Virus record (IMG/VR): IMGVR_UViG_3300028048_003124
Length of the DNA: 64,000 nt
Source of the DNA: a virus
Lineage: Duplodnaviria; Caudoviricetes
Reading direction: 5' to 3' (one strand)
Shown: in pieces, positions 2-63,449 of the stretch
Position numbering within the stretch: the stretch's first letter is position 1
How the letters are laid out: each line of letters begins with the position of its first letter
Notes under the pieces: generated by a model
Told to the model about the DNA's origin: nothing
Seen by the model: only the letters and a program-made list of their open reading frames with translations
Databases searched by the model: none
Position numbers and translations under genes: made by a program

Positions 2-2032
2 TATGACGACAGTTCGATATCCCAGCTTAAAGGCGCAGAGCGTGTAAGGTTGAGACCTGAAGCTCTATTGGGCAGTAGGGGTATTGACGGTGCAATCCAT
101 ACCATTCAGGAGATCATTGGTAATGCCACTGATGAAAAACTGGCAGGGTATGGAGATCAGCTCGACATTTGTTACCGCGAAGATGGGAGTATCTCTATCA
201 GAGATTATGGTAGAGGAGTACCTCTTGGTTGGAATGAGAAAGAGCAGGCTTGGAATTACAACCTAATTTATAACGAGTTGTATGCAGGCGGTAAGTACGC
301 TGATAACCAGCAGGTTCTCAGAGATATTGACGAGAGAAATGATTGGGAAGCCTTTAGAATGGAGGACCACCCATATTTGATTTCTATCGGTCTCAACGGT
401 CTTGGCGGAGCGGCTACTCAGTATAGTTCTAAGTACTTCATTGTAAAATCTTACCGTGATGGCGTAATGTCAGAGATGCAGTTCGAGAAGGGGTGTCCCA
501 TCCTTGATGAACTGATAGTCGAGAAAACAGATGAACCCAATGGTACTTATATTGAGTGGAAACCTGATGACGATGTTTTCACAGATACTGACATACCCGA
601 GAAGTGGTTTGAGAACACTTGCAAGGCATTGGCTTTTGTATCTGGTTTTAAGGTTAATCTGAATATCAAAGGTGAACAGTATACATTTAATGCAAGTTCT
701 ATTTCTAATGAGATGAAGGAGTCTGTTGGTGATTGTGTTTTTGGTCATAACTTTAAGCACATTGTTGACGGTACTGGTGATGTCTGTATTTGCGATGTAG
801 AGATTGCAATTGGACCTAACGGTAGAAATCAGGATTTTTACCACAATAAGGTAGCAATTAGAGGTGGAGCTCATGCAACTGGCGTATACACTGCCTTAAG
901 CCAGTTCTTCTATAAGGTAAGTCAGAATAACGGTATTAAGATTACAGAGAGGGACTACGCAGGAAAGTTTTCTGTAATTATTTCTACTCTTGCCAATAAG
1001 GCAAGTCTTAGAAACCAGACAAAAGATAGTATTGACGATATGTGGATTGCTAGTCTCATTGCAGATACTATGTTTAATCTGCTATCTACAGAGTACTCAA
1101 AGGGTACTCCATGGCTACAGGGTATTATCGATGAGGTTGTTGTAAACGCTCAAAACAGAATTGCTGTAGCTGAGATGTCTAAGAACTTAAAAGAAGTTCA
1201 GAAGGCTACAACTCGTCATAAGGCAAGTAACAAGTTTGTAACCTGTCGTTCTTATGAAGATGGAAAAAGAGCAGCAGAAACAGAATTCTTTATTACAGAG
1301 GGTGATTCTGCAGGTGGTAACGTCGTATTATCGAGAGATAGTGATTACCAGTGTCTTTTAAAAATTAGGGGTAAGTCTTTGAACGTATTCAAAGCTCCTT
1401 TGCAGAAACTCATCGCAAATAAAGAGATACTTGATATGATAAGTATCTTGGGCTGTGGTGTAGATCTGGGTATCGATGATTTTGAAACTTTTGATATAAA
1501 TAAGCTTAAGGTTGGTAAGATTATCTTTGCGACAGATGCCGACGTCGACGGAGCTCACATTCGCGTGTTACTTTTCCTTATTATTTACAGGCTCTTCCCG
1601 AAGCTTTTATCCTCAGGAAACATCTACGTTGCAGAGACCCCTCTGTACGTGCTGAATATGAAAAACAATGAGTCTATCTACTGCATGACCGAGGAAGAAA
1701 TGAGAGAAAAGAGTGCCGAGTTAAGCGGTCAGATACGTACAATCGACCGTTTTAAGGGCTTAGGCGAGTGTTCGACTAGCGTCCTTTGGTCAACGATGCT
1801 CAATCCTGAAACACGAAGCTTACGTCAAATCAAAATAGATCCTAATGACACAGATATCTATTCAGCTCTTGAGGTACTCTTTGGTAAGTCAACAGCGGAT
1901 AGAAAGAGGGCTATCCTCGGAAGTATGTTGGGTACTGACTTCGATGAGACTATTGAGAGTATCGACGATATTGCAAATTACATTGATGGTCTTGAGTTAA
2001 ATAATCTGGAAGTAGAAGACGTAGAATATTAA
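2..2032 (+). CDS. gyrB: Type IIA DNA topoisomerase subunit B (GyrB/ParE family), 5' end outside window
   Basis: Frame open from base 2 (YDDSSISQLKGAERVRLRP); GHKL motifs EIIGNATDE, DYGRGVP, GLNGLG; TOPRIM motifs EGDSA, DADVDGAHI, RFKGLGE. Confidence 0.93.
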   Translation, partial: YDDSSISQLKGAERVRLRPEALLGSRGIDGAIHTIQEIIGNATDEKLAGYGDQLDICYREDGSISIRDYGRGVPLGWNEKEQAWNYNLIYNELYAGGKYADNQQVLRDIDERNDWEAFRMEDHPYLISIGLNGLGGAATQYSSKYFIVKSYRDGVMSEMQFEKGCPILDELIVEKTDEPNGTYIEWKPDDDVFTDTDIPEKWFENTCKALAFVSGFKVNLNIKGEQYTFNASSISNEMKESVGDCVFGHNFKHIVDGTGDVCICDVEIAIGPNGRNQDFYHNKVAIRGGAHATGVYTALSQFFYKVSQNNGIKITERDYAGKFSVIISTLANKASLRNQTKDSIDDMWIASLIADTMFNLLSTEYSKGTPWLQGIIDEVVVNAQNRIAVAEMSKNLKEVQKATTRHKASNKFVTCRSYEDGKRAAETEFFITEGDSAGGNVVLSRDSDYQCLLKIRGKSLNVFKAPLQKLIANKEILDMISILGCGVDLGIDDFETFDINKLKVGKIIFATDADVDGAHIRVLLFLIIYRLFPKLLSSGNIYVAETPLYVLNMKNNESIYCMTEEEMREKSAELSGQIRTIDRFKGLGECSTSVLWSTMLNPETRSLRQIKIDPNDTDIYSALEVLFGKSTADRKRAILGSMLGTDFDETIESIDDIANYIDGLELNNLEVEDVEY

Positions 2033-2039
2033 AAGCTAA

Positions 2040-2069
2040 GGGTATGCTGATAGATATATTGGCATACCC
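2040..2069 (+). terminator. Stem-loop after gyrB
   Basis: GGGTATGC...GCATACCC inverted repeat right after the stop codon; weak U-tract. Confidence 0.55.
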
Positions 2070-2090
2070 ATAATTTATAGGAGGGTAATA

Positions 2091-2600
2091 GTGAATTGTT
2101 ATAGTCTTTCGATGTTAAGAAATATTTTAAATACTGTTAATATCGATATGGTGTCAAACAGATTTCCACCAAATAACAATACTTTTCTTGTTATAAACAA
2201 TGCCTGTAAGGTATGGTTTAAGGATGGTTATGCTCCAAAGGAGTTAGAGAAATATGTTATTTATAGATTTGATATGGGTTTATCTGTAGATAATATATCC
2301 AAAACTATGCAAGTAACAAACGCAAAAGTTTCTCGTTCTCTTAACCTGTTTGTAAAGAATGTCAGATGGGTATTAAGAGACTCTATTGCTAGTGGGGTTT
2401 ATAAAAGGCTCGTTAGTGAATTTCCTGAGATACTATACATGCCTAAGGTGTGTAAGGCTTTACATAGCTTTAATATCTTGGATACTTATGATATGGCTTT
2501 TTGTGATTTTGATGCTATATTAAAGTCTAAGAGGTTTTCTTCGAAAGATAAGTCAAAGTTAAAGGAAATTCGGTCAATTTGTGAAAGAAAGTATAATTAA
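2091..2600 (+). CDS. Degenerate sigma-70 region 4 HTH + RNAP alpha-CTD-like protein
   Basis: EKYVIYRFDMGLSVDNISKTMQVTNAKVSRSL (sigma4-like) followed by KALHSFNILDTYDM...ILKSKRFS (alphaCTD-like); GGAGG RBS. Confidence 0.55.
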   Translation: MNCYSLSMLRNILNTVNIDMVSNRFPPNNNTFLVINNACKVWFKDGYAPKELEKYVIYRFDMGLSVDNISKTMQVTNAKVSRSLNLFVKNVRWVLRDSIASGVYKRLVSEFPEILYMPKVCKALHSFNILDTYDMAFCDFDAILKSKRFSSKDKSKLKEIRSICERKYN

Positions 2601-3138
2601 GGGTTGTTTGTGTATGTGTTTTGATATAAATGGAAATGAGAAAAAGTTTTTATTAAATGTATATAACGGTATATTAAAAGTAGCTAAAAATAAAAAATTA
2701 TATACAAGTTTCTCAACAATGGAAATATTGAGTTGTCTAAAGAGAGTTATAGACACATCAGTCAGTAAGGGTATTTTAACAGATAGAGAGTATGCAACGT
2801 TATATTCAAAGTTTTGGAACGGTTTTTCAGATGCAAAGATTGCAAGTTTTGAGGGCATAAGTAACTCTATGATTTTTTATAGAGTTAAGTGGTCTATATT
2901 AAAAGTGCTTAACTTTGAGTTATTAAAAGAATTAAAAGCATTTCCAGATGGTGCTATAGAATATGTAAATATGTCTAAAAGGGCTTACAATGCCTTAAAA
3001 ATAAATGGTGTAAATACTGTAAGTGCTTTATGCGATATGTCAGATGATGTCATTTTGTCTAAAAAGCATATTGGTGAAACACTTGGTAGGGAAATTTGCG
3101 GTATTAAGGAGAGGTTAATACATGAGGAAGCTAAGTAA
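2581..3138 (+). CDS. Sigma-70 region 4 HTH + RNAP alpha-CTD-like protein
   Basis: LTDREYATLYSKFWNGFSDAKIASFEGIS plus IEYVNMSKRAYNALKINGVNTVSALCDMSDDVILSKKHIG; true start may be downstream. Confidence 0.7.
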   Translation: MKESIIKGCLCMCFDINGNEKKFLLNVYNGILKVAKNKKLYTSFSTMEILSCLKRVIDTSVSKGILTDREYATLYSKFWNGFSDAKIASFEGISNSMIFYRVKWSILKVLNFELLKELKAFPDGAIEYVNMSKRAYNALKINGVNTVSALCDMSDDVILSKKHIGETLGREICGIKERLIHEEAK

Positions 3139-3784
3139 TAAAGGTAAGAAAAACTTTAAAAAAGTTTTATATGTTGGTTTATACATAGTAATTATAAGCT
3201 GGATGGTTGTATCTGGTATTCAGTTATGGTTAGACTGTGCCATTTTAGATAATAACTACTCAAATATGTTGGTAGATAAGCAAGATGGTAGTATTACAGA
3301 GGTTGCTGATGTTTATAGTAATGGTGACTTTACTTTATCTGACGACGGTACAGTTCTAAAGTCAGATAGTGATATAAATAATTATGTAAGGGTACCAAGT
3401 TATGGTAGTTACTACTATAATAAAGAAAACAAGTCTTTCTTTGCGCCATTAACAAAGGTAGAAACAAGAAACCTAATGCTTAAGTTTGTATTGTTAGATA
3501 TGCTGAGTTTTATCATAATGATTATACTCCTTGTCCATAATAGGAATAAGGGTACTTGGTTAAAAGTAATTATATGGGTTTCAGAGCTTCTATATGCTTT
3601 TGGGACATACTTGGTATATGCAAACGCTCTAAGTGTACTTTACAGAGTAGAGAAAGGTGTATGGATTATACCTTTGGCTAAATTGGCGATATTATGTATT
3701 GTATTATTAATTGCATTTATAGTAGATGCAAGAAAAGATACAAAACTACCTTTAAGACTTCATAGGAGGAAGAAAGATGGTTAA
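3122..3784 (+). CDS. Membrane protein (about 4 TM segments)
   Basis: One N-terminal and three C-terminal hydrophobic stretches; overlaps both neighbours. Confidence 0.7.
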   Translation: MRKLSNKGKKNFKKVLYVGLYIVIISWMVVSGIQLWLDCAILDNNYSNMLVDKQDGSITEVADVYSNGDFTLSDDGTVLKSDSDINNYVRVPSYGSYYYNKENKSFFAPLTKVETRNLMLKFVLLDMLSFIIMIILLVHNRNKGTWLKVIIWVSELLYAFGTYLVYANALSVLYRVEKGVWIIPLAKLAILCIVLLIAFIVDARKDTKLPLRLHRRKKDG

Positions 3785-4730
3785 TTCAACATATAAGTAT
3801 GCTAAAGCAATGGGGTATGTATCTCGTATAGCGTCTACGATAGTATACATAGTAAACGGGAATATGTATGAGTATGGTGCTTGTGTACATTTTAAAATAT
3901 GTAGAAAAGATTTGTACTCTTTTTATTCTTTTAGTCGTAATGCGGCAAAAAAGTCAATAAGTACGCCAAAGACTCAAAGCAAAGAGGTTATTGCTCTTTG
4001 GTATGCTTCTTTGCTAACGAGGTCGGTAGAGGCTCTTGCAAATGGTGCAAGTATTTCCGTTATTGTAAACACGTTTGGGGTATCAAGATCTAATATAAAC
4101 TGGGTGGTCAGTAAGGCGATGAAAGAATATGTGAAAGATGATCCGCCTGAGTTAGATTTGTACAGGCTTGTCTTAGGTGGTGATATATCATCAAAAGATT
4201 TGCCTGTTGATTATAAAGAAACAGTAAAGTATCTTTTAGGTTTATTATCTCCTAGAAGAGAGATGGTTTTAAGGATGCGTATTGGTCTAGATAATAACAA
4301 GCATACTTTAGATCAGGTAGCAAGGGAGTTTAATGTAACTAAGGAAGTTGTAAGACGTATTGAGTCTCAGGCTCTAATGGAACTGCGTAGTTCTGGGAAA
4401 GTTGATATGTTAAAGCTCGGTATTAAAAAATACAATTCTCTTCCAACAACTAAGGAGATTGTTGGTAAAGACAAACCAATAGAGCAGTTTAATTTTTCTG
4501 TAAGGACATATAATTGTTTAAAAAGGGCAGGTTTTAATACTTTAAGTGATTTTAACGGTGTGTCAGTTTATAAGTTACTTCAGATACGCAATTTTAGAGA
4601 ATGGTGTGTAGAAGAGGTAATAAGCTCACTTAAAAAGTCCAAGTGTGTGAGTTTTTCAGGCAATGTGGATAATATTAGTTTAACTAAAAATGTAGATGCC
4701 CTGAGAGGTATTACTATTAAGATTTTGTGA
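3777..4730 (+). CDS. Sigma-70 region 4 + RNAP alpha-CTD fusion protein
   Basis: LSPRREMVLRMRIGLDNNKHTLDQVAREFNVTKEVVRRIESQALMELR (canonical sigma4) and FSVRTYNCLKRAGFNTLSD...IRNF (canonical alphaCTD). Confidence 0.85.
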   Translation: MVNSTYKYAKAMGYVSRIASTIVYIVNGNMYEYGACVHFKICRKDLYSFYSFSRNAAKKSISTPKTQSKEVIALWYASLLTRSVEALANGASISVIVNTFGVSRSNINWVVSKAMKEYVKDDPPELDLYRLVLGGDISSKDLPVDYKETVKYLLGLLSPRREMVLRMRIGLDNNKHTLDQVAREFNVTKEVVRRIESQALMELRSSGKVDMLKLGIKKYNSLPTTKEIVGKDKPIEQFNFSVRTYNCLKRAGFNTLSDFNGVSVYKLLQIRNFREWCVEEVISSLKKSKCVSFSGNVDNISLTKNVDALRGITIKIL

Positions 4731-4738
4731 GGTAAGCA

Positions 4739-5674
4739 ATGAGTAGCAGATTATCGCAAGAAAAAGCATCAGAAGGTATTAAGTATATTGGCAAGATATA
4801 CAATGCTTTATACGCAATAAAAAACAAAATGGTAGACGAATGGGTAGCCTGTAAAGCTGTTGGTATTTATAGAAAAGATCTTTGGTCTTTTTATAGAAAG
4901 GTTCAGAAACATACAGGAAGTTACTCTTTTTATAACAAGACCGCAGTTGCTTTAGGTTACTCAGGAAGGCTGATTAAGGCTTTAGAAAAGTTATCCTATG
5001 GTAATGATAGTAATAGGGTTTGTCAGATGTATAATGTACAGTGGTCTCACATTCTGTGGGCTATTGATAGAGCAAATGTTAAGTATGTATTCAACGATCC
5101 GCCTGAGTTAGACCTATATAAAGATTTGCTTGAAAATGATGCGTTAACTGTAAAGGATTTGCCTAAAGATTACAGAAATACCGTTGTTTACTGTTTATCT
5201 AAAGTCAAGTACAAGGATGCTAAAGACGTTTTAGAACATTATTACGGTATTTACGGTAATAAGATGTCATTAGGTGATCTAGATACAATGTTAAGTAAAC
5301 CAAAAGGTTCTAGCTCAGCTGCAAGAAGTCGTGGGCTAAACTTCTTAAGAAAGTATTTTATGCACCTGCTGACAACTGGTCTTGCAAGTGCGGATATCAT
5401 GGACCCAAACACTGTAAGTTTGGACAGCTTATTCGGTCAAAGAGTAGCAAGCAGTCTAAACGAAATGGGTATAAATTCATTAAAAGATATGAATGGAATG
5501 TCCTATGCAGATTTGATATACATTCGTAATTTCGGTGATGAGGTAGTGAAAAGCATTTTTGAAAGGTTAAGTATTTTGTCTTGTATTAGGTTTAGTAGGA
5601 AGATTGATTCCTATGATAAGCTGTGTGAAGAACCCTACACGAGGATTTTGGTATATTCGTGTCCTGATTGTTAG
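4739..5674 (+). CDS. Sigma4 + alpha-CTD fusion protein, paralog of 3777..4730
   Basis: Shares RKDL.SFY, DPPELDLY, KDLP.DY; degenerate HTH; LNEMGINSLKDM...IRNFG. Confidence 0.75.
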   Translation: MSSRLSQEKASEGIKYIGKIYNALYAIKNKMVDEWVACKAVGIYRKDLWSFYRKVQKHTGSYSFYNKTAVALGYSGRLIKALEKLSYGNDSNRVCQMYNVQWSHILWAIDRANVKYVFNDPPELDLYKDLLENDALTVKDLPKDYRNTVVYCLSKVKYKDAKDVLEHYYGIYGNKMSLGDLDTMLSKPKGSSSAARSRGLNFLRKYFMHLLTTGLASADIMDPNTVSLDSLFGQRVASSLNEMGINSLKDMNGMSYADLIYIRNFGDEVVKSIFERLSILSCIRFSRKIDSYDKLCEEPYTRILVYSCPDC

Positions 5675-5728: not shown

Positions 5729-7795
5729 ATGGGTATTCATAAAAAGTACTTAACACCTCAACTTTATTGTAAAGATATTATAGATTTTTCTATGAAAGAA
5801 AAAGTTTATAATTGGGTAATAAATGGTGAAGAGTATTCTGGAACCTTATTAGATTTCTTCTCTGAGTATAGGTATAAAGATATTCAAGGAGATAGTTGTT
5901 GTGATGTAGAGTCTATAAAAAAGGGTTATAAAAATTTTATAAATTCTTTGAGTGGTATATACAGTCACGAGAGTGTTATAGCAGGTATATGCCCTGTTTG
6001 TAATATGTTTGCAACAGTATCTTGGTATAGATATAATAGTGGTGGTTTTAAATGTAAACAGTGTTCTACTGTGAAAGGTTTGTCAATTGCTGATAATGAG
6101 AAGGTTAAAGCTTTATATTTAAGAGCTAACAATATTTTCCCGCCAGAGTCTATACCCTTGTATTCTCAGAAGGATATAAAGTTTAAGTGTTCAGTAGGTC
6201 ATGAATTTTATAGACGCCCATCATCAATAGTGAGGAACGGTGTGATAGGCGAAGGTTGTCCTATTTGCAACAATTCGTTAAACGCCACAAATTTTCTTAA
6301 AGATAATCCTAAAGCGGCATCTATGTGGGATTATACAAGAAACGGTATAAATCCAGAAGATGTGGCAAGGAGTAGTGGTAAGTATTATTGGTTTGTATGC
6401 CCAGAAGGTCATAGTTTTCAATCTTCACCGAATATTTTAGATAGAAGAAGGAATAGTGTAGGTTTTGGTTGCCCTGAGTGTTATAGATTATATAAGTTAA
6501 ATACTTATAATTTAGCTTCAAGGTATCCAACAATATACAAGTATTGGGATGATCGAAATCCCGAAGACCCTGCTGATGTAATGTCAGACCCAGAGGGTAT
6601 AAATAGTGATAAATTATATTGGGTTCATTGTGATTTCGGTCATGTGTATAAACAGTCTGCATGTAAAATAGGTAAGAGTTTCAATAAAGATGGTATAAAG
6701 AGATGTCCAGTGTGTTCTGGGCAGTTCTTGCAGAGTGGTGTCAATGATTTGAAAACTTTAATGCCTAAGGTAGCAGAATGTTGGGATTATGAGAGGAATA
6801 CTTCTTTACCAGAAGACTATGCTCCATTTTCTCACAAGCCAGCATGGTTTAAGTGTGTAGTATGCGGTAGGAGTGTGTACTATAAGTCCATAAATGATAG
6901 AAGCAAGTCTGCAGGTTATTGCAAAGATTGCGCTTCTAAATTCAACCAATCATTAACAGAAAAGGAACTTATAAATTATGTAACAAGCCTAGGTTTCGAA
7001 GTAAAAACAGATAAGACTTTAGGCGATATGCACTACAAGTATGATATGTATATAGCTGAGATGGGGCTGTTAATAGAGTACAATGGTGTATATTACCACA
7101 GTGAGGCTGTTCATACTGATAAGATGCGACATTATAAGAAATATGCTGAGGCTAAAAACGCAGGTTTAGACTTATTTGTAATTTGGGAAGATGATTATAA
7201 AAGAAACCCAGATTTGATAAAGCGTATGTTGAGAAATAGATTAAACGTGTCTATTGAGAGTAAGGTTAACGCAAGAGATTGCATTGTTGTCTACCCAGAT
7301 ACAGTATCCGCAAAGGTTTTTCTAAATGAAAATCATATACAGATGTCTGGTGGGTTGAATACATACTTAGCTTTATCATTAAATGGGTTTTTTGTAGCTG
7401 TAATGGCATATTCCGTAAAAGATGGTGTTGCTACAATAAATAGATATGCAACATCTTGTAATGTTAGAGGTGGTTTTTCCAAATTATTAAAAGTTTTGAG
7501 CAGTAATGATGAACTTACGGCTATAGAGACTTTTTCAGATAATAGCATATCCGATGGAGATCTGTATAAAAACAGTGGTTTTGTTATTACTAAACATATA
7601 AAACCCGACTACAGTTATTTGTACAAGGGTAGGGAAAGGGTACATAAGTTTAATTTAAGAAAAAAAGCATTTCAAAAAGACGTAAATCTAGTTTATAAAG
7701 AGGGTATGTCTGAGGCAGAGTTGGCTGAGTTAAACGGTTTATATCGTATATGGGATTATGGTAAAAAGAAATGGAGACTAGATTTAACTTTGTAG
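5729..7795 (+). CDS. Hef-like free-standing homing endonuclease with repeated treble-clef zinc ribbons (DUF4379-like)
   Basis: Repeated W...N...W.C..GH...CP.C units; YDMYI...IEYNGVYYH...IWE nuclease core; C-terminal GGFSKLL/GDLY..SGF/RIWDYG domain. Confidence 0.75.
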   Translation: MGIHKKYLTPQLYCKDIIDFSMKEKVYNWVINGEEYSGTLLDFFSEYRYKDIQGDSCCDVESIKKGYKNFINSLSGIYSHESVIAGICPVCNMFATVSWYRYNSGGFKCKQCSTVKGLSIADNEKVKALYLRANNIFPPESIPLYSQKDIKFKCSVGHEFYRRPSSIVRNGVIGEGCPICNNSLNATNFLKDNPKAASMWDYTRNGINPEDVARSSGKYYWFVCPEGHSFQSSPNILDRRRNSVGFGCPECYRLYKLNTYNLASRYPTIYKYWDDRNPEDPADVMSDPEGINSDKLYWVHCDFGHVYKQSACKIGKSFNKDGIKRCPVCSGQFLQSGVNDLKTLMPKVAECWDYERNTSLPEDYAPFSHKPAWFKCVVCGRSVYYKSINDRSKSAGYCKDCASKFNQSLTEKELINYVTSLGFEVKTDKTLGDMHYKYDMYIAEMGLLIEYNGVYYHSEAVHTDKMRHYKKYAEAKNAGLDLFVIWEDDYKRNPDLIKRMLRNRLNVSIESKVNARDCIVVYPDTVSAKVFLNENHIQMSGGLNTYLALSLNGFFVAVMAYSVKDGVATINRYATSCNVRGGFSKLLKVLSSNDELTAIETFSDNSISDGDLYKNSGFVITKHIKPDYSYLYKGRERVHKFNLRKKAFQKDVNLVYKEGMSEAELAELNGLYRIWDYGKKKWRLDLTL

Positions 7796-7801
7796 ATATT
7801 A

Positions 7802-7830
7802 TTGCATATTTGGTAGAAATATGGTATAAT
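7802..7830 (+). promoter_or_regulatory. SigA-type extended -10 promoter for gyrA
   Basis: TTGCAT-N17-TATAAT with TGG before the -10. Confidence 0.8.
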
Positions 7831-7861
7831 ATATGTAGACCTAGAAATTTAGGAGGTTTAT

Positions 7862-10039
7862 ATGCAGAACGAAATTTATAATGGCGTTTCTGATGGTTTT
7901 AGCTTCTTAGTAGATGGGTATATGGATTACTCTAAAGAGGTAATAGCGAGACGTGCTATTCCTGATCTAAGAGATGGATTAAAACCTGTTCAGCGCAGAA
8001 TTATGTATGCAGCCAAGTTGGCTGATAAAGGTATGATGCAAAAGTGTGCAACCTTTGTTGCTGACTCTATGAAACTTCACCCGCACGGCGACTCCTCTGT
8101 GTATGGTGCTTTTGTTCTTATGACAGATGTTAACGGTTCATGGAACGTACCTGTTATTAAAGGTATGGGTAATCTTGGTAAGGTTTATTCTAAGAACCCT
8201 CCTGCAGCATATCGTTATCCTAAGGCTATGCTTCACGAGAACGCCAAGGAATATTTCAAGGAAAAAGACGTTTTTGACCTAGTCCAATCCGAAGAGGGTG
8301 ATGGTGTAGAGCCCGTCGTTCTGTACCCATCATACCCATCAGTTCTTGTAAACGGAACAGCAGGTATTGCAGTATCAGTTGGTACAAGAATTCCGTCATT
8401 CAATTTCATAGATGTCCTCGAGATGACTAAAAAGTTCATCCAACAGGGAAAATTAGATCCTGTTAAGGATATCATCTATCCTGATTTTCCGACAGGCGGT
8501 ATTCTCGTAAAGACTGATTCTGAGGTTGCTAAGATTATGGCAACTGGTATCGGTAAACTGAAAATCAGAGCGAAGGTAGAGATTAACGGTAACGAGATCA
8601 TAGTAAAGGAAGTACCCTACGGTAAAACAGTAGAGGGTATCGTAGAGCAGATTGAGTCCTCTGATATGAGGGAGATCAAGTCTGTTATGAATCTAACGGG
8701 TAATAACTCAGTCGGAAAGGTAGTTATCCAGTGTAGAAGCAAGAGGGTAGTTGAATGGGTACTCCTTGAGTTATACAGAAGAAATATCCTGCAAAATTAT
8801 TATGCAAGTAATATTCTTGTAATCAATGATGGTAAGCCCTATATTTACGGTGTTCATAAGATCGTAGAAGAATGGGTAAAGTTTAGAAGAAATGTAATAA
8901 TTAAAAAGTTCAATCATGAACTGGATGGGCTTTCTTCCGAACTATTAACTCTTGATTACTTTATTCGTTTAATCTCAAACACTGAGTGGAAAGATACTTA
9001 CGTTCAGAAAGCAACTAAGGTATCTAAGAAAGATGCGGATGTCTATCTTCATGAGATTTTTGATGATATTCCTCAGGATGTTTGTGATTGGATTAATGGT
9101 CGTGCGATTAGTGCTTTTAATAACGGCGGTCGGTATATGAACAGATATAACGACTTATCGGAGTATAAAAAGTATTGTGAAGATATGCACAATAATCCTG
9201 ATAAGTATATTTTAAATGAGCTCGACGAGCTTATATCAAAAAACAAGTCTTTACATCCTCGTAAGACCTTTATTTCTAACACTGATTACAAGTTTAGTAA
9301 GATCGTAGAAGCAGAGGGTATTGAGGACGATTCGCCTTGTGTATATACGCTAACTACTGATGGATTCCTATTTAAGACACGTGATGTGCCGAACATTAAC
9401 TCAAGCATCATGAACCAGTTTAAAGGTCAGGCAAACAGTGTACTTGTGGGATTTGATAAGTTTGGTCGTGTTTTACGATTAAGCGGATCTGAGGTAGCAT
9501 ATACTGCACCTGGCTCTAATGGATTGTATCTGCCGAAGGTATTTGATGCTTCTTTCCAAGAGGATTATCGCATCCTCTATATGGGTTTGTGTGATGGTAC
9601 TAAGCGTATGCTTGTTTATAGAGATGGCTTCATCGGCTTTTTGGATACATCAGAATGGGTAGGGAAGAAAGTCGTTAAGGTTATCTCCAAGGGTGTATGC
9701 TTGGCTGTTATGGATAAATTGCTTGAAGTATATGAGGAGGAAGATATTCCTCAGTGCTTGCTTCTTGCAGATGATTCTGGAAAGAAGATTAAGTTAGGTG
9801 TACTTCATTCAAACGAGATCCCAGTTAGGGGTAGAACCAGTAGGGCGAAGGTGTTTAATGGTAAAAACATTGACACTAAGTATATTAAGGGTTGTTCGTA
9901 TTTTGAGTTAGCAACTTATTTAAAGAATCCTGATAGGTACTACAATAAGTTAACAAAGATCGAGGAAGATGCTTTTATTGGTGACATCGAAGAGATGGCA
10001 GATGGTAAGTATCTTGAGTTCTGCACAGACTTAGAATAA
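7862..10039 (+). CDS. gyrA: Type IIA DNA topoisomerase subunit A (GyrA/ParC family)
   Basis: RAIPDLRDGLKPVQRRI, HPHGDSSVY, catalytic AAYRY, LVNGTAGIAV, PDFPTGG; no GyrA-box recognised. Confidence 0.93.
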   Translation: MQNEIYNGVSDGFSFLVDGYMDYSKEVIARRAIPDLRDGLKPVQRRIMYAAKLADKGMMQKCATFVADSMKLHPHGDSSVYGAFVLMTDVNGSWNVPVIKGMGNLGKVYSKNPPAAYRYPKAMLHENAKEYFKEKDVFDLVQSEEGDGVEPVVLYPSYPSVLVNGTAGIAVSVGTRIPSFNFIDVLEMTKKFIQQGKLDPVKDIIYPDFPTGGILVKTDSEVAKIMATGIGKLKIRAKVEINGNEIIVKEVPYGKTVEGIVEQIESSDMREIKSVMNLTGNNSVGKVVIQCRSKRVVEWVLLELYRRNILQNYYASNILVINDGKPYIYGVHKIVEEWVKFRRNVIIKKFNHELDGLSSELLTLDYFIRLISNTEWKDTYVQKATKVSKKDADVYLHEIFDDIPQDVCDWINGRAISAFNNGGRYMNRYNDLSEYKKYCEDMHNNPDKYILNELDELISKNKSLHPRKTFISNTDYKFSKIVEAEGIEDDSPCVYTLTTDGFLFKTRDVPNINSSIMNQFKGQANSVLVGFDKFGRVLRLSGSEVAYTAPGSNGLYLPKVFDASFQEDYRILYMGLCDGTKRMLVYRDGFIGFLDTSEWVGKKVVKVISKGVCLAVMDKLLEVYEEEDIPQCLLLADDSGKKIKLGVLHSNEIPVRGRTSRAKVFNGKNIDTKYIKGCSYFELATYLKNPDRYYNKLTKIEEDAFIGDIEEMADGKYLEFCTDLE

Positions 10040-10055
10040 GAAAGGGGTAGATATA

Positions 10056-11720
10056 GTGGCAACTGATGATAAAAACATCTATGAAGAAATGGATGAAGTA
10101 TCTTCAACCACTATACCTGCCGATTCTGATACCGACGAAGTTGAAGCCATAATTGAAAATGAAGATAGTCCAGTTTTGGATGTATCTGGAGTAGATTTGG
10201 GAGACTTTCAGGTAGACGAGTCGGAAGATAATGATGACGATGTAATCTCATCTGAGGAGCGGCTTAGACTGTTCTCAGATGAGATTTTATCCAGTTGTAT
10301 TCAGGGTAAATCTATTTCTCGCTATGCTTTAGAGAAGCTATTGTCTATTACAAATCCTAGGCTTTTTAGGGATGAGAATTATATTCTGTTCTCTATATAC
10401 TTCTTCTATAGGAGTAAGCTAAAGCTTATAACTATTGATTCGGAGTTTATCAAACTGTTTTTAACAAGAAATAGAAAGCTCTTAAAGAGGTCTAGAGGGT
10501 ACATAGATATCAATGCTTATGGCGAGGTCGATGGCTCTAACGAACTAGGGTATATTTCTGGAGTTATAAAGCATTTCAATAGGCTTAAGGCTATGCCAGA
10601 AATATCTGTAGATGAGTTTGAGACCTATTTTGAAAAATACCTTATAGAGTTCAAAGCAATTGAAGCAGCAAAGGTATATCGGCAGTGTCAACAGATATTA
10701 ACTGACGGGCTGAAGATAGGTCGCAAGACTTATGTAGGTTTTGAAGATAGTCAAAGCTATTGTAAAAAGTGCCTTGCTGAGATAGAAGGTCTTGTGGATA
10801 CCAACATGGGTACTGGTTTTGTCAAAATGTCGGAGGTACTTTTAGACGAGAAGCCTGATAACAAAAAGCCTGTTAAAATAGGCGATTTTGGGCGTATTGC
10901 TCCGTTAAACGAAGCATACGGGGGTATATATACAGGAATGTTTTATTCCTTTATAGCACCTCCAAAATCGGGCAAATCGAAGCTATCTGCACGTATTTGT
11001 CATAACGTAGCTGTTGTAGCAGGAAACAATGTGACGGTATGGGCACAGGAGGGTGGTCATGAGATGTGGACAGCCCAGATGAGGGCTATACATTTTGACT
11101 ACATTTATAATACTGGTGTTGATGTTGTTAGCAGAAAGTTCGGTGTAACACAGGAAGTGATTATGCACGATTCTTTCAAATCTGATGAATTAAGGCAGTT
11201 AGAGCTGTCTAGTAAGTTAGACCTTGCTACAAATCAAGATTATGGAAGTATCGACTACATAGATAGACCTTTCAACGTCGAGACTTTTATAGAGGATATA
11301 GACACCTCGGTAAAAGAAAACAATAGTAAGTTGGTTATTATTGACTATTTACAGTTGATAGGTTCAGCCAACGGGGTATCTGAAAGAGAAAGAATTGCTA
11401 ATGCTTATAAAGAACTATTAAAGTATTGTAAGCAGAGTAATGTTGCCGTGATAAGTCCTGCACAGTTCAAGCAGGAGTCTTTTAACGATCTTATAAGCAA
11501 GAAAACCGTGGACGGAAGTGATCTGCGTACAGCAGCAGGTGGTTCATCAGAGGTATTAAGAACACCTGATATTCTATTTGCATTGTGGGCAAGTGTTACA
11601 GACTTGCAGAACAATAGTATGAAGATTATTTCTCTCCCATCTCGTATGAACAAAACTTTCCCGAATATAGATATGAGGATTGATTTAGCGACGTGTCAAT
11701 TCATATCTGTAGATGGGTAA
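10056..11720 (+). CDS. dnaB: DnaB-like replicative helicase with acidic N-terminal extension
   Basis: Walker A APPKSGKS; LVIIDYLQLI; SPAQ motif. Confidence 0.85.
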   Translation: MATDDKNIYEEMDEVSSTTIPADSDTDEVEAIIENEDSPVLDVSGVDLGDFQVDESEDNDDDVISSEERLRLFSDEILSSCIQGKSISRYALEKLLSITNPRLFRDENYILFSIYFFYRSKLKLITIDSEFIKLFLTRNRKLLKRSRGYIDINAYGEVDGSNELGYISGVIKHFNRLKAMPEISVDEFETYFEKYLIEFKAIEAAKVYRQCQQILTDGLKIGRKTYVGFEDSQSYCKKCLAEIEGLVDTNMGTGFVKMSEVLLDEKPDNKKPVKIGDFGRIAPLNEAYGGIYTGMFYSFIAPPKSGKSKLSARICHNVAVVAGNNVTVWAQEGGHEMWTAQMRAIHFDYIYNTGVDVVSRKFGVTQEVIMHDSFKSDELRQLELSSKLDLATNQDYGSIDYIDRPFNVETFIEDIDTSVKENNSKLVIIDYLQLIGSANGVSERERIANAYKELLKYCKQSNVAVISPAQFKQESFNDLISKKTVDGSDLRTAAGGSSEVLRTPDILFALWASVTDLQNNSMKIISLPSRMNKTFPNIDMRIDLATCQFISVDG

Positions 11721-19327: not shown

Positions 19328-19376
19328 GAAGCTTAGATTTTATTTTTCTGATAAATCAAAAACTTTTTAGAAGGTC

Positions 19377-19405
19377 TTGCAAAATAGAATGATATATGGT
19401 AAGAT
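19377..19405 (+). promoter_or_regulatory. SigA-type extended -10 promoter
   Basis: TTGCAA-N17-TAAGAT with TGG. Confidence 0.7.
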
Positions 19406-19450
19406 AGCATCACAAAATCAATTTAGTTGGTTTTGTGGTGCTTACTTTAT
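19406..19450 (+). terminator. Stem-loop overlapping the predicted transcription start
   Basis: AGCATCACAAAATCAA / TTGGTTTTGTGGTGCT (G-U pairs) followed by TACTTTAT. Confidence 0.55.
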
Positions 19451-19478
19451 TAAAAACAGAAACAAGGAGAAATGACAA

Positions 19479-25274: not shown

Positions 25275-25281
25275 GATATTA

Positions 25282-25310
25282 TTGTATAAAATACAGATTT
25301 ATGGTAAAAT
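25282..25310 (+). promoter_or_regulatory. SigA-type extended -10 promoter
   Basis: TTGTAT-N17-TAAAAT with TATGG. Confidence 0.75.
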
Positions 25311-25340
25311 ATAAACGATATAGATAGGTGGTAGTTATTT

Positions 25341-36858: not shown

Positions 36859-36866
36859 TTACATTA

Positions 36867-36905
36867 AGGCTAGGCTTATATAATGTAAGTCTAGCCTAAT
36901 TTTTT
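36867..36905 (+). terminator. Rho-independent terminator
   Basis: AGGCTAGGCTTATA / TGTAAGTCTAGCCT plus T-run. Confidence 0.8.
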
Positions 36906-36915
36906 ACAGAGTTTA

Positions 36916-36944
36916 TTGCTAAAATATACAATGTATGGTAAAAT
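36916..36944 (+). promoter_or_regulatory. SigA-type extended -10 promoter
   Basis: TTGCTA-N17-TAAAAT with TATGG. Confidence 0.75.
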
Positions 36945-36978
36945 TATTACATAAAAATAAAAAGGGGTTTAATGTGCT

Positions 36979-45616: not shown

Positions 45617-45627
45617 TATAGAGCTTG

Positions 45628-45656
45628 TTGCATTTTACCACTTTTTATGGTAAAAT
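45628..45656 (+). promoter_or_regulatory. SigA-type extended -10 promoter
   Basis: TTGCAT-N17-TAAAAT with TATGG. Confidence 0.8.
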
Positions 45657-45689
45657 ATAATAAATAAAAAATTTATTAGGGGGCTTTCC

Positions 45690-46317: not shown

Positions 46318-47349
46318 TTGCATATGAGATATTATAAGTATGTACGAATGCAAGATCAGGTGTTCGTATTTAGGGTACATAAGGCTGTTCAGGCTTGTAA
46401 AGCAATGGCGATACTAAAGTATAGATCCCGTTGGGAGGATGCTTTAGATGACGCCTACTTTCACATAATTAAGAACTTTGATGATAGTAAAGGTTCTTTA
46501 GAGCATTATGCTATGAGTATTGTAAGCACTATCTACTTGAATAAGTATTCTAAGGAGGTAGGCTCTGAGACGGTACTCGAAATAGAGTCTGAGAGAAAAG
46601 CGATGGAAAGTGTACGAGTTAGTAACCCATATGACGATTTGTTAGACGCTTTAGAGGAAGAGGGTACTGACTACGATGAAGAGATTCATCAATGTATAAA
46701 GTATCTTCTTCCTCTTTTTATTAAGGACTATGAAATGTTTAGGAGTAAAGATAGTTCTGATAGAAAAATGAAGTACAGCGGATTGTTCGATATGTTCTCT
46801 TTTAAGGTCATAAGTTCCGCTGTTAAGATATTAGCAGATGACTATTATGATGATGCCAAGTATATAAATACATTATCTAAAAACTGCCATGTGAAAAACT
46901 TCAAAGAGGATAGGTATAAAAGTAGCTTAGATAAAACTTTATCCTACATCAGCAGAATTGATGACATTGTACGTTGCAAGGCAATAGGGGTAAAAAGGAA
47001 AAAGTATGCTTACCTCATAGATATTGTGGATGTACTATCTAAGATATTCAGTATGTTTTATGATAAGGAAGGCGTAGCCCAGAGAGAGATAGATGGTGTA
47101 CCTATATATTGCTCATTGTCAGGTCAGATACTTTTATCTAAAGATGAGTTATTTGAGACTTTGGAGAGGGAGATAGTAGGTACTCTGTTAGCTTTGAGGA
47201 CTAACTTAAAGGTACTTAACTATGAGAGAGGAAAAGAACTGGTTGTAACGTCAACTAGGGTATACGAACCAGAGGTTATAATTCAGATGTTCCAAGCAGG
47301 AGTTCACATACCGATGAAAAAGTTGATGATAGGAAGGGTAATAAGGTAA
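46318..47349 (+). CDS. Protein with sigma-70 region 2-like N-terminal domain
   Basis: WEDALDDAYFHIIKNFDDSKGSLEHYAMSIV resembles region 2.2-2.4 (DL......FD..KG..F..YA); no region 4 HTH seen. Confidence 0.55.
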   Translation: MHMRYYKYVRMQDQVFVFRVHKAVQACKAMAILKYRSRWEDALDDAYFHIIKNFDDSKGSLEHYAMSIVSTIYLNKYSKEVGSETVLEIESERKAMESVRVSNPYDDLLDALEEEGTDYDEEIHQCIKYLLPLFIKDYEMFRSKDSSDRKMKYSGLFDMFSFKVISSAVKILADDYYDDAKYINTLSKNCHVKNFKEDRYKSSLDKTLSYISRIDDIVRCKAIGVKRKKYAYLIDIVDVLSKIFSMFYDKEGVAQREIDGVPIYCSLSGQILLSKDELFETLEREIVGTLLALRTNLKVLNYERGKELVVTSTRVYEPEVIIQMFQAGVHIPMKKLMIGRVIR

Positions 47350-61715: not shown

Positions 61716-61723
61716 GATAAAAT

Positions 61724-61912
61724 ATGATACAAGATTCCGCTAAGGTATTAAGGTTAAGGAACGAGATTGGTATGTCTCAAAAAGACCTAGCAAACAGGTT
61801 AGGGGTACAAGAAGATATAATCAAAAGTTGGGAGAGGGGGTGGAGAACCCCTCCCCAACATATGTTAAATAAAATAAGGAGGTTGCGTATAGGGTGTCTA
61901 ACGAACAGATAA
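61724..61912 (+). CDS. XRE-family HTH regulator
   Basis: LRNEIGMSQKDLANRLGV......WERG.R.P. Confidence 0.85.
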   Translation: MIQDSAKVLRLRNEIGMSQKDLANRLGVQEDIIKSWERGWRTPPQHMLNKIRRLRIGCLTNR

Positions 61913-62439
61913 GGATATATGACTTGGATGGTATTTTATACAGGCAGTATTGCGAAAAAGGTCTAGACGGTGTATTCTCTTTAATAAAGAGTGTAGGAAG
62001 TTCTCACAAAGATGTTTTTTATTTTGTAGATGATAAAGAGTATTATCGTACCTTGTTTGAAGAGAATCTATGCGTAGTAGCTTTAGATAAGGGTAAGGTG
62101 GTAGCTTCGTGTTGTTGTCTTATCGGTTCTAATATGCCAAAAGACGTAGTAGATGTTATTGGTGAGAGTGACATAGAATCGTCTATGCTATTAAAATCCT
62201 ATCAAGTACAAGAAGATTACCGTGGCAAAGGTATTGGTAAAAATATCATTAAGGTATTGCTACGAGAGGTAAGAATTAGTGGCTATAAGATAAAAAATGT
62301 TTACGCAACCGTTCATCCAGATAACATCCCCTGCCAGAGGGTATTAAAGGCTTGTGGTTTTGAAAGGATTGCCTACTCGGAAGATTTGTATGTAGGAGAA
62401 CCGAGGGATATTTTAAAACTCAGTATTGATGAGGTATAA
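61894..62439 (+). CDS. GNAT acetyltransferase
   Basis: VQEDYRGKGIG; TVHPDN.PCQRVLKACGF. Confidence 0.85.
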   Translation: MSNEQIRIYDLDGILYRQYCEKGLDGVFSLIKSVGSSHKDVFYFVDDKEYYRTLFEENLCVVALDKGKVVASCCCLIGSNMPKDVVDVIGESDIESSMLLKSYQVQEDYRGKGIGKNIIKVLLREVRISGYKIKNVYATVHPDNIPCQRVLKACGFERIAYSEDLYVGEPRDILKLSIDEV

Positions 62440-62929
62440 ACTTATGAGTAAGAAGAAGGTTTTGCTTGTCGTTGACTTGCAAAAACAGTTTGCAGATGGA
62501 AACGATAATGTTAGCTGTGAAAATATTGCAAACTACATAAAAGATAATGAGAAGGATTATGATTACGTTATTGTGACTATATTCTCTCAAGAGATTTATG
62601 GTTATAAAAATGATCTTTTTTCTGATAAGCTACACTGGGATGAGTGTGCTTCTTGTGGTGTAGATGATCTGCTAATAAATACTAACAAGAAATTAGTGCT
62701 ACTGAAAAACTCTTACGGAATAACATTAAAGGGTATTTTAGAGCGTGAAGATATAACTGTAGATCTTGTTGGTTGTAACGCAGATGCCAGCATATTAGCT
62801 ATATGTTTTAGGCTATGGGATAACCAATACGACTTCAGGGTATTATCAGATTACATATATTCAAAGAATACAGATAAGGGTGCATTGGTATCTTTGTTGA
62901 AGAGAAATTTCGGAGATTGTGTGGTTTAA
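62426..62929 (+). CDS. Isochorismatase/cysteine hydrolase family protein
   Basis: LLVVDLQKQF, K.SYG, LVGCNADASI. Confidence 0.8.
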   Translation: MMRYKLMSKKKVLLVVDLQKQFADGNDNVSCENIANYIKDNEKDYDYVIVTIFSQEIYGYKNDLFSDKLHWDECASCGVDDLLINTNKKLVLLKNSYGITLKGILEREDITVDLVGCNADASILAICFRLWDNQYDFRVLSDYIYSKNTDKGALVSLLKRNFGDCVV

Positions 62930-63449
62930 CATGGATAGGTATATGCTTAGAAGTGCTACAAAAGATGATATAAAAAGTATCTATAGATTGATACAGCTTG
63001 TTGGTGAAGCCGCTGATAGTGAGATGTTCAGCTACAGTAAGAGCTACTCTTATTATGAAAAGATTATAGCTGAGAATCCTGTAGTTGTAGCTGTTCTAAA
63101 TGATGAGATTGTTGGCGCATTTCTATCTTACATACAAGATGATGATCCTTTAGGTGTTTATAAAGAGCTGGGTATCAAAAACCCAGTAGGTGTAGCTTCT
63201 TTAGAAGAGTGTGTGGTTGATGAAAAACATAGAGGTCATAAGCTGGAGCAACGTATGGGTGTACGCTTAATTGATCATATAAAAGCTATGAGTAAGTATT
63301 ACTATTATAACATACATAGGGTATATGTTACAGTACATCCTAAAAATACGCCAAGTGTAAGATCTCTAGATAATATAGGTTTTAAGCTAGCAAAAAAGAC
63401 TAAGCTATATGGTGAAAAGACACGGTATATACTGGTTATGAATATATAA
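62919..63449 (+). CDS. GNAT acetyltransferase (paralog of 61894..62439)
   Basis: VDEKHRGHKL; TVHPKNTPS...GF...LY...R.IL. Confidence 0.85.
   Translation: MWFNMDRYMLRSATKDDIKSIYRLIQLVGEAADSEMFSYSKSYSYYEKIIAENPVVVAVLNDEIVGAFLSYIQDDDPLGVYKELGIKNPVGVASLEECVVDEKHRGHKLEQRMGVRLIDHIKAMSKYYYYNIHRVYVTVHPKNTPSVRSLDNIGFKLAKKTKLYGEKTRYILVMNI

Follow-up and report, generated by a model that had tools for sequence, protein, structure and literature searches.

We found, in the 64,000-nucleotide (nt) stretch of the Caudoviricetes virus record IMGVR_UViG_3300028048_003124 (the window, at its full length), a cluster of five open reading frames (ORF1 to ORF5) between the genes for the two subunits of a type IIA topoisomerase. 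ORF4 encodes region 4 of a sigma-70 factor (sigma-4) followed, in the same polypeptide, by the C-terminal domain of RNA polymerase's alpha subunit (alpha-CTD and RNAP, respectively); both domains were detected with Pfam, and the same order was recovered in ORF5 through homology and profile comparison. Considering these domains, we lean towards the reading that the cluster genes are phage transcription regulators, which would bind DNA upstream of promoters through heads derived from RNAP. An exact copy of ORF1 is recorded on a contig of 228,994 bp; the element is treated here as a jumbo phage, with 64 kb of about 229 kb covered by the window. The initial annotation had described four paralogous fusions of sigma-4 and alpha-CTD at this place. 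Judged by sequence comparison, the status of fusion paralog holds in a graded way, being established for two genes (ORF4 and ORF5), likely for a third (ORF2) and half-supported for the fourth (ORF1).

Domain composition of ORF4

In Pfam, ORF4 matched Sigma70_r4 (PF04545) with 44.0 bits (cut-off 24.1) at residues 154-204 and RNA_pol_A_CTD (PF03118) with 56.3 bits (cut-off 23.8) at residues 232-286. In NCBIfam, its region 4 corresponded to the extreme C-terminus of the RpoD models and its last domain to the C-terminus of the RpoA models, these matches being partial and far under the cut-offs of the models; NCBIfam holds no dedicated family model for a fusion of this type. The PDB sequences matched by ORF4 (76 sequences, E<=1e-3) were solely chains of RpoD/SigA region 4 and of the RpoA CTD. 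Region 4 matched 1tty with E 1.9e-10 and 3n97_A with E 4.3e-9, and showed 44% identity with domain 4 of Staphylococcus aureus SigA (4g6d_A). Endonuclease rows of PHROG appeared for ORF4 only at E 0.06 and covered the helix-turn-helix (HTH).

Custom hidden Markov models (HMMs) were built from 85 sigma-4/alpha-CTD modules taken from the database matches and run on the 232 stop-to-stop frames of at least 60 amino acids (aa) in the window. ORF4 scored 8e-26 with the sigma-4 model and 2e-25 with the alpha-CTD model. Besides ORF4, ORF5 and ORF2, no frame among the 232 was significant with the alpha-CTD model.

The AlphaFold2 model of ORF4, made from 70 sequences, had a mean predicted local distance difference test (pLDDT) of 86.3. 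Residues 228-294 of this model were superposed on the Bacillus subtilis alpha-CTD 1z3e_B with a VIA Z of 11.7 and a root-mean-square deviation (rmsd) of 1.4 Å over 66 of 67 residues, and the predicted domain is compact and helical with the two helix-hairpin-helix elements of the alpha-CTD fold. Residues 137-216 were superposed on region 4 of primary and extracytoplasmic function (ECF) sigma factors with VIA Z from 9.3 to 7.0, among them 7vpd_F (Z 9.3) and 8jzt_A (Z 8.2, rmsd 1.0); Foldseek gave a TMt of 0.87 between region 4 and 1rio_H. The whole ORF4 model was aligned by Foldseek to sigma-A chains at a template modelling (TM) score of only 0.21.

One ORF4 variant with 89% identity (P0002; longest related contig 1,798 bp) stops at 246 aa, where the alpha-CTD would begin. 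This early end could be a natural truncation, or an artefact of a contig end or a frameshift.

ORF5 and the shared N-terminal domain

The BLASTP alignment of ORF5 with ORF4 covered 298 residues with 30% identity (E 5e-34), and the N-terminal region previously ascribed to both long genes is indeed shared. The two are true paralogs, and the middle segment of ORF5 appears to be a decayed region 4. The RNA_pol_A_CTD match of ORF5 (24.8 bits) was barely over the cut-off of 23.8, and no sigma match was found in Pfam. The custom HMMs gave 5.5e-4 for sigma-4, in its first half only, and 2e-8 for alpha-CTD; hhalign gave P 3e-5 against the sigma-4 profile and 8e-8 against the alpha-CTD profile.

The N-terminal domain (residues 1-135 of ORF4) is common to ORF5, to the variants P0001 (97%, on a contig of 223,849 bp) and P0002 (89%), and to the P0045 cluster, a separate 315-aa family with 22 members on contigs of up to 209,773 bp. 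Among the sequences mapped, it was restricted to ORF4, ORF5, their close variants (P0001, P0002 and P0019) and the P0045 cluster. Folded alone, the domain of ORF4 was confidently helical (AlphaFold2 pLDDT 85.3), and approximately residues 82-121 compose a second sigma-4-like HTH (hhalign P 1.5e-6, probability 90%). Its best structure match was a helical-repeat nuclear-pore model with VIA Z 9.6, the next best having Z 5.4; through the VIA structure comparison no convincing known fold was found for the domain as a whole. We also looked for a sigma region 2 or 3 hidden in this domain and found no Pfam match, and no structure match to sigma-2 or sigma-3 with the domain folded alone. No Sigma70_r2 match was found with Pfam at E<=1 in any of ORF1 to ORF5, which agrees with the earlier statement that region 2 is missing from the long fusions.

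The two long genes had also been said to share an identical stretch of 17 nt, and this was confirmed with two matches against 0 expected (positions in Table 1). The stretch encodes DPPELD, which is the best-conserved motif of the linker, and a DNA-level element was set aside because the sequences on either side have diverged. Where the amino acids are the same, and with the codon usage of the window, five identical codons have a probability of about 0.01, which is mildly unlikely by chance; between ORF4 and ORF5, 46 of 91 identical residues use the same codon. The strongly conserved peptide motif together with codon bias suffices, and therefore no special explanation for the repeat is needed.

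The short genes ORF1 and ORF2, and ORF3

ORF2 contained RNA_pol_A_CTD at 35.9 bits in Pfam and scored 3e-10 with the custom alpha-CTD model. No sigma match was found in Pfam, the custom sigma-4 model was not significant, and the hhalign comparison with the sigma-4 profile was weak (P 0.008; ORF3 as control, P 0.27). The nearest feature neighbours of ORF2 in the ESM Atlas were clusters with alpha-CTD and Sigma70_r4 (0.92-0.93). Its similarity to ORF4 was limited to the alpha-CTD (E 1e-4, 14 of 26 residues), and no homolog of ORF2 other than itself was found. The start of ORF2 is more likely at the in-frame ATG at 2614, giving a protein of 174 aa. Local duplication was considered as the origin of ORF2: in a tree of 267 alpha-CTDs, from which the ORF5 domain was left out by the coverage filter, the clade common to ORF2 and ORF4 held 100 leaves (support 0.62), so that the two were not grouped and the tree was uninformative on this point.

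ORF1 matched only Sigma70_ECF in Pfam, with 13.5 bits under a cut-off of 21.1. For sigma-4, the custom model gave E 0.038 over the 232 frames and hhalign gave P 0.009. The ESM Atlas model of ORF1 had a pLDDT of 0.88, and its residues 1-105 matched Sigma70_r4 clusters in 10 of 10 rows with TM 0.44-0.72. For an alpha-CTD in the C-terminal half, nothing significant was seen (hhalign P 0.55, HMM E 6.6, no Pfam match). The relatives of ORF1 were itself and one variant with 86% identity on another contig, and it had no pairwise similarity to the other ORFs of the cluster.

Four plus-strand ORFs lie where the initial annotation placed them, with a fifth, the membrane protein ORF3, among them. That each of the four holds sigma-4 and alpha-CTD was borne out for ORF4, with Pfam for both domains, and for ORF5, with Pfam for the alpha-CTD and hhalign for the decayed region 4. 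For the short genes the statement stands in part: the alpha-CTD of ORF2 was recovered and its sigma-4 is weak, and ORF1 has a sigma-4-like fold with no signal of an alpha-CTD. The profile scan which had been proposed as a check found Sigma70_r4 and RNA_pol_A_CTD together in ORF4, the alpha-CTD in ORF2 and ORF5, and neither in ORF1. The number of four paralogs was partly over-counted, because the relationship extends over full length only between ORF4 and ORF5, covers the alpha-CTD alone in ORF2, and is absent from pairwise comparisons with ORF1. The anatomy of the two short genes as fusions is plausible.

ORF3 lies inside the cluster and overlaps both neighbours; it had no match in Pfam or PHROG, and no homologs were found. 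An anti-sigma type of N-terminal domain, located in the cytoplasm, is lacking in it.

A wider family of sigma-4/alpha-CTD proteins

An exhaustive HMMER search with ORF4 retrieved 8069 representatives of clusters at E<=1e-3, of which 225 reached E<=1e-10. The domains of ORF4 were mapped on 169 sequences: 70 had the composition sigma4-alphaCTD and 22 sigma4-alphaCTD-alphaCTD, and many others contained repeated alpha-CTDs or repeated sigma-4 domains. Pfam was run on 110 of the 149 matches ranked under the top match P0002 and revealed RNA_pol_A_CTD in 104 and Sigma70_r4 in 87; extra domains were ResIII/DEAD helicase (4), HARE-HTH (3) and Spo0A_C (1). The proteins of the family have a size of about 180-330 aa, hold sigma-4 first and alpha-CTD second, and are located mostly on phage contigs. 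Their database labels include 'DNA directed RNA polymerase subunit' and 'sigma factor-like HTH DNA-binding protein'. Long forms of up to 1579 aa were observed among the proteins P0020-P0133, joining multiple copies of alpha-CTD and/or sigma-4 to ResIII/DEAD helicase, HARE-HTH, Spo0A_C, LRR or integrase SAM-like domains.

The ESM Atlas clusters with both domains were labelled 75-100% viral. A scan of IMG/VR with ten canonical members gave 268 relatives, and both domains were located in one frame in 16 of the 80 that were kept. The contigs that carry these 16 fusion loci measure 4.6-259 kb, and each locus had a single copy within +/-6 kb. On bacterial contigs, among the matches listed, all 80 loci were rpoA- or rpoD-like and 0 were fusions. 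A further Pfam HTH was present in front of the module in three of six viral fusion proteins scanned, of Cro/CI type in L002 and L007 and HTH_17 in L015. A MerR/HTH_17-type HTH was found in P0007, and an AlkZ-related domain in P0003.

In IMG/VR we found no relatives of ORF4, gyrA or P0167, and the 16 fusion loci had no other gene in common with the window. Ten flanking genes were scanned in five of these loci, drawn from the eight longer contigs; they encoded a radical SAM protein, a weakly matched M48 peptidase, an HNH endonuclease and a DNA methylase, and six had no match. In GenBank phages, none of 36 records matched ORF4 with at least 80% coverage, the full module of the family member P0149 was present in one of 51 (an unannotated faecal contig), and no DNA match to the window was detected. 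BFVD gave no match at E<=0.001.

The design in which sigma-4 is followed by alpha-CTD is not unique to this phage; by the database matches it recurs in hundreds of metagenomic clusters, mostly of phages. The locus in the window has the order, the size class and the phage context of this unnamed family, but differs from it in holding four genes in a row, in its own N-terminal domain and in diverged contact residues. With its unusual tandem arrangement, its additional sigma-4-like N-terminal domain and its changed contact residues, the locus is a variant of a recurrent phage protein design.

DNA-contact residues

For the comparison of contact residues we took the -35 contacts in the recognition helix of Escherichia coli region 4 to be R584, E585, R586, R588 and Q589, and the '265 determinant' of the E. 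coli alpha-CTD to be R265, N268, C269, G296, K298 and S299. Across the 85 family modules, the recognition helix contained R in 75, R in 71 and Q in 79, followed by LRHP.R, which is of the primary-sigma type; the alpha-CTD contained R in 84, N in 78, C in 69 and the hairpin G in 80. By E. coli numbering these conserved residues correspond to the -35 contacts and the '265 determinant'. Because the family consensus keeps the contact residues of both modules, the family looks built to bind DNA of the UP/-35 type.

The recognition helix of ORF4 reads K-E-V-V-R-R, whereas the family consensus and RpoD read R-E-R-I-R-Q. Of the five -35 contact residues, two are unchanged, one is conservatively replaced and two are changed, so the primary-sigma set is incomplete in ORF4, which also has M/E at a position with R/K in the family. 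In the alpha-CTD, the equivalent of R265 is present in ORF4, ORF5 and ORF2; ORF4 alone has the equivalents of N and C, and ORF5 and ORF2 retain the hairpin G. These residue changes in the cluster may reflect either retargeting or loss of DNA contacts.

Gene order, insertion and promoters

All long ORFs of the window are on the plus strand, the GC content is about 31-41% and the GC skew is strongly positive. Besides the type IIA topoisomerase B and A subunits, the genes of the window encode a DnaB-like helicase, tail lysozymes, an NAD-dependent ligase, a family A DNA polymerase and a UvrD-like helicase. The location between gyrB and gyrA given earlier is correct, since Pfam identified the two flanks as these B and A subunits. 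The gap between the end of the former (2032) and the start of the latter (7862) is 5.8 kb and contains six plus-strand genes, namely ORF1 to ORF5 and a homing endonuclease (Table 1). From ORF1 to ORF5, adjacent genes either overlap or are separated by no more than 8 nt. This tight packing, a Shine-Dalgarno-like motif at each ORF, and variants with 86-97% identity on other contigs indicate real genes.

Table 1. Positions of the gene cluster, its domains and its flanking features in the window.
Feature	Position	Strand	Remarks
Type IIA topoisomerase B subunit (gyrB-like)	2..2032	+	upstream flank, runs off the window start; Pfam DNA_gyraseB, Toprim, DNA_gyraseB_C
Hairpin, 13 bp, 3' of gyrB	2040..2069	+	terminator-like, with a poor T run
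ORF1, 169 aa	2091..2600	+	sigma-4-like HTH fold in N-terminal half; C-terminal half unassigned
ORF2, 185 aa	2581..3138	+	alpha-CTD at residues 116-179 (nt 2926-3117), weak sigma-4-like HTH upstream of it
ORF3, 220 aa, membrane protein	3122..3784	+	hydropathy scan, at least 3 hydrophobic segments
ORF4, 317 aa	3777..4730	+	helical N-terminal domain, then sigma region 4 and alpha-CTD, with a short tail of low confidence
ORF4 N-terminal domain, residues 1-135	3777..4181	+	second sigma-4-like HTH at about residues 82-121
ORF4 sigma-70 region 4, residues 145-212	4209..4412	+	nearest to primary-sigma region 4
ORF4 alpha-CTD, residues 228-294	4458..4658	+	
ORF5, 311 aa	4739..5674	+	full-length ORF4 paralog
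ORF5 region 4, apparently decayed, residues 136-206	5144..5356	+	
ORF5 alpha-CTD, residues 232-283	5432..5587	+	
17-nt identical stretch, two copies	4140..4156 and 5096..5112	+	encodes DPPELD linker motif
Free-standing homing endonuclease, 688 aa	5729..7795	+	three DUF4379 zinc ribbons and nuclease
Type IIA topoisomerase A subunit (gyrA-like)	7862..10039	+	downstream flank; Pfam DNA_topoisoIV 9.6e-78

The homing endonuclease (DUF4379 8.5e-26 in Pfam; phrog_559 7.7e-71 and phrog_3339 1.2e-69) fills the remaining gap directly before gyrA and is considered here as context, outside the regulator family. In L082, a distant relative with 29-30% identity and the one relative compared in which both topoisomerase genes are present, gyrB and gyrA abut (7157-10594). 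Since the two genes are adjacent there, the 5.8-kb block in the window is an insertion, part of which is the homing endonuclease. By this comparison the cluster is a lineage-specific insertion, and the interval between gyrB and gyrA is an insertion hot spot. With Pfam at E<=1 no nuclease, NUMOD or IENR family was found in ORF1 to ORF5, and they do not look like remnants of a homing endonuclease.

The GC content over 2001-4000, where ORF1 to ORF3 are located, is 30.8%, against 41% in gyrB and 39% in gyrA, which fits fast-evolving or recently acquired genes. Far from the cluster, at 61721-63449, a small gene for a Cro/CI-type HTH protein (61721-61909) is followed by a GNAT acetyltransferase gene, an isochorismatase-like gene and a second GNAT gene.

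A sigma-A-like promoter, TTGCAt-N(14-15)-TATGGTAaAAT with an extended -10, was read by eye, without statistics, before gyrA and four other genes; the five intergenic regions are 7796-7861, 19328-19478, 25275-25340, 36859-36978 and 45617-45689. The phage replication genes thereby seem to use the sigma-A holoenzyme of the host. In the 58 nt upstream of ORF1 no promoter of sigma-A type was visible, so the cluster is probably read through from gyrB. The ORF at 46318-47349 was considered as a candidate partner of sigma-2 type, and it had no sigma match in Pfam, PHROGs or PDB sequences; its only Pfam match was a weak one to the TcaA NTF2-like domain (E 9e-4).

Proposed function and alternatives

As promoter-upstream regulators, the proteins would act as follows. 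ORF4 begins with a helical N-terminal domain that holds an additional sigma-4-like HTH, and continues with a region 4 of primary-sigma type and an alpha-CTD. ORF5 is a diverged duplicate of ORF4, and ORF2 and ORF1 would be short relatives which evolve fast and are linked to it only at the level of domains, all being members or derivatives of the large, mostly phage-borne sigma-4/alpha-CTD family. The order of region 4 and alpha-CTD would mimic the pair which is located side by side on the -35 and UP-element DNA in the holoenzyme, with the HTHs in the major groove and the helix-hairpin-helix of the alpha-CTD in an A/T-rich minor groove. Binding upstream of promoters might alter the promoter choice of the host RNAP, either through occupation of promoters or through replacement of sigma-A region 4 on the beta flap. 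Considering the altered recognition residues, the copies in the cluster are likely to recognise sites different from the canonical -35. Transcription of the cluster together with gyrB is also probable. DNA binding, the effect on RNAP and the timing of expression are what we infer from this architecture.

Several observations weigh against this proposal. At positions where the family has R in 75 of 85 and Q in 79 of 85 modules, ORF4 contains V and R, respectively, and its hairpin G, present in 80 of 85, is replaced by R. The K/R and S/C that follow the hairpin G are absent from all three alpha-CTDs of the window (ORF4, ORF5 and ORF2). From such changed contact residues it follows that DNA binding is perhaps weakened instead of retargeted, which would favour a protein-binding role. 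The sigma-A-type promoters of the window show no sign of requiring a sigma-4/alpha-CTD factor, and no binding sites were identified for the cluster proteins. Elsewhere, the genes around family members show no conservation, and neither the alpha-CTD of ORF1 nor the region 4 of ORF2 was demonstrated by the profile tests.

The first alternative, which we consider unlikely, is that the proteins are decoys which bind RNAP or its factors without sequence-specific DNA contact, and so shut down or rewire host transcription. Either the copied region 4 would bind the beta-flap tip in competition with host sigma-A, or the domains would soak up host partners such as activators, anti-sigma factors or Spx-like proteins. 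In favour of this, both the alpha-CTD and region 4 are well known as surfaces on which proteins dock, the alignment of ORF4 region 4.1 with RpoD is close, and several DNA-contact positions conserved in the family are gone in ORF4, ORF5 and ORF2. However, the DNA-contact residues are very strongly kept in the family at large, and further DNA-binding HTHs, superfluous for a pure decoy, are often added. These extra HTHs, of sigma-4-like, Cro/CI and MerR/Xis types, favour a DNA-binding regulator with multiple heads over a pure decoy.

It seems improbable to us that the proteins are DNA binders outside transcription, either cargo or helpers of a homing-endonuclease cassette, or accessory factors of replication or of the topoisomerase. 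The cluster is situated at an insertion hot spot beside a homing endonuclease and between topoisomerase genes, and some family members are fused to ResIII/DEAD helicase (4 of 110) or AlkZ-related domains. A paper on BREX proteins describes sigma-HTH-like modules and alpha-CTD-like modules, each on their own, as accessory domains for DNA binding (PMC12839542). On the other side, no nuclease or other enzymatic domain was found by Pfam in ORF1 to ORF5, and the 16 viral loci show no conserved link to endonucleases or topoisomerases.

That ORF4 is the sole working gene, with ORF1, ORF2 and perhaps also ORF5 as duplicates in decay that have hardly any function or none, is quite improbable: the copies do run from canonical to degenerate, near-identical variants are the only homologs of ORF1 and ORF2, and the GC content over ORF1 to ORF3 is low, but all reading frames are intact, tightly packed and preceded by Shine-Dalgarno-like motifs, and ORF1 has a confident Atlas model and is kept at 86% identity on another contig.

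Comparison with known systems

The promoter-upstream regulators proposed here share their two folds with the upstream reader of the holoenzyme, in which region 4 of the primary sigma is placed on the -35 element and the alpha-CTD on the proximal UP element (PDB 3N97, 1KU7 and 1RIO). The differences are that both modules are located in one free-standing polypeptide, that sigma regions 2 and 3 and the alpha N-terminal domain appear to be missing, and that the specificity residues of ORF4 depart from the consensus. Without sigma region 2/3 and the alpha N-terminal domain, the fusion could not itself join the core enzyme or open DNA.

Small factors acting at sigma region 4 are known, including gp33 with gp55 and AsiA with MotA in phage T4, and the two-part sigma SigO-RsoA in B. 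subtilis. These small proteins take over the job of region 4 or its docking site and retarget RNAP, a mode which the cluster proteins may share. In contrast, the cluster proteins have no sequence relation to gp33, AsiA or MotA, none of which is known to contain an alpha-CTD. Unlike the split sigma factors gp55/gp33 and SigO-RsoA, they have no sigma-2-like partner that we could find within the 64-kb window.

The Bacillus phage vB_BmeM-Goe8 encodes a protein of 210 aa, Goe8_c00050 (L163, MN043729.1, 1959-2591), with a C-terminal alpha-CTD only (Pfam 4.3e-22), a build similar to that of ORF2. Its gene is located among small genes at the left end of the genome and is annotated 'RNA polymerase subunit alpha'. 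Different from ORF2, its source is a phage isolate of the Herelleviridae, Pfam gave no region 4 for it, and it is single-copy there; we found no characterisation of this protein. The portion available of a jumbo-phage review describes gp33 and a minimal single-HTH sigma, and no alpha-CTD fusion (PMC7824862). In the literature we found no paper on a sigma-4/alpha-CTD fusion, though supplementary tables, for example those of PMC7824862, might list such proteins.

Biological meaning

The takeover of host transcription by phages is understood from few model factors, such as AsiA/MotA, gp33/gp55, gp67, P7 and gp39. The family described here copies exactly the two host modules which read the upstream half of the promoter, fused in the order they have on DNA. 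If the proteins sit on host promoters, they would form a shut-off device that is both simple and general; if they instead dock on RNAP, they would provide a new way of reprogramming it. The series from canonical to degenerate at one locus helps to ask which residues matter.

As a bolder speculation, which on the present sequences we hold to be doubtful, the proteins might be trans-acting surrogates of region 4 on the host beta flap, each with a private alpha-CTD and an extra HTH, which swap the whole upstream promoter reader. If that were true, the four diverged copies would define four promoter classes, and the family would represent a widespread and so far undescribed appropriation of sigma across hundreds of phage lineages.

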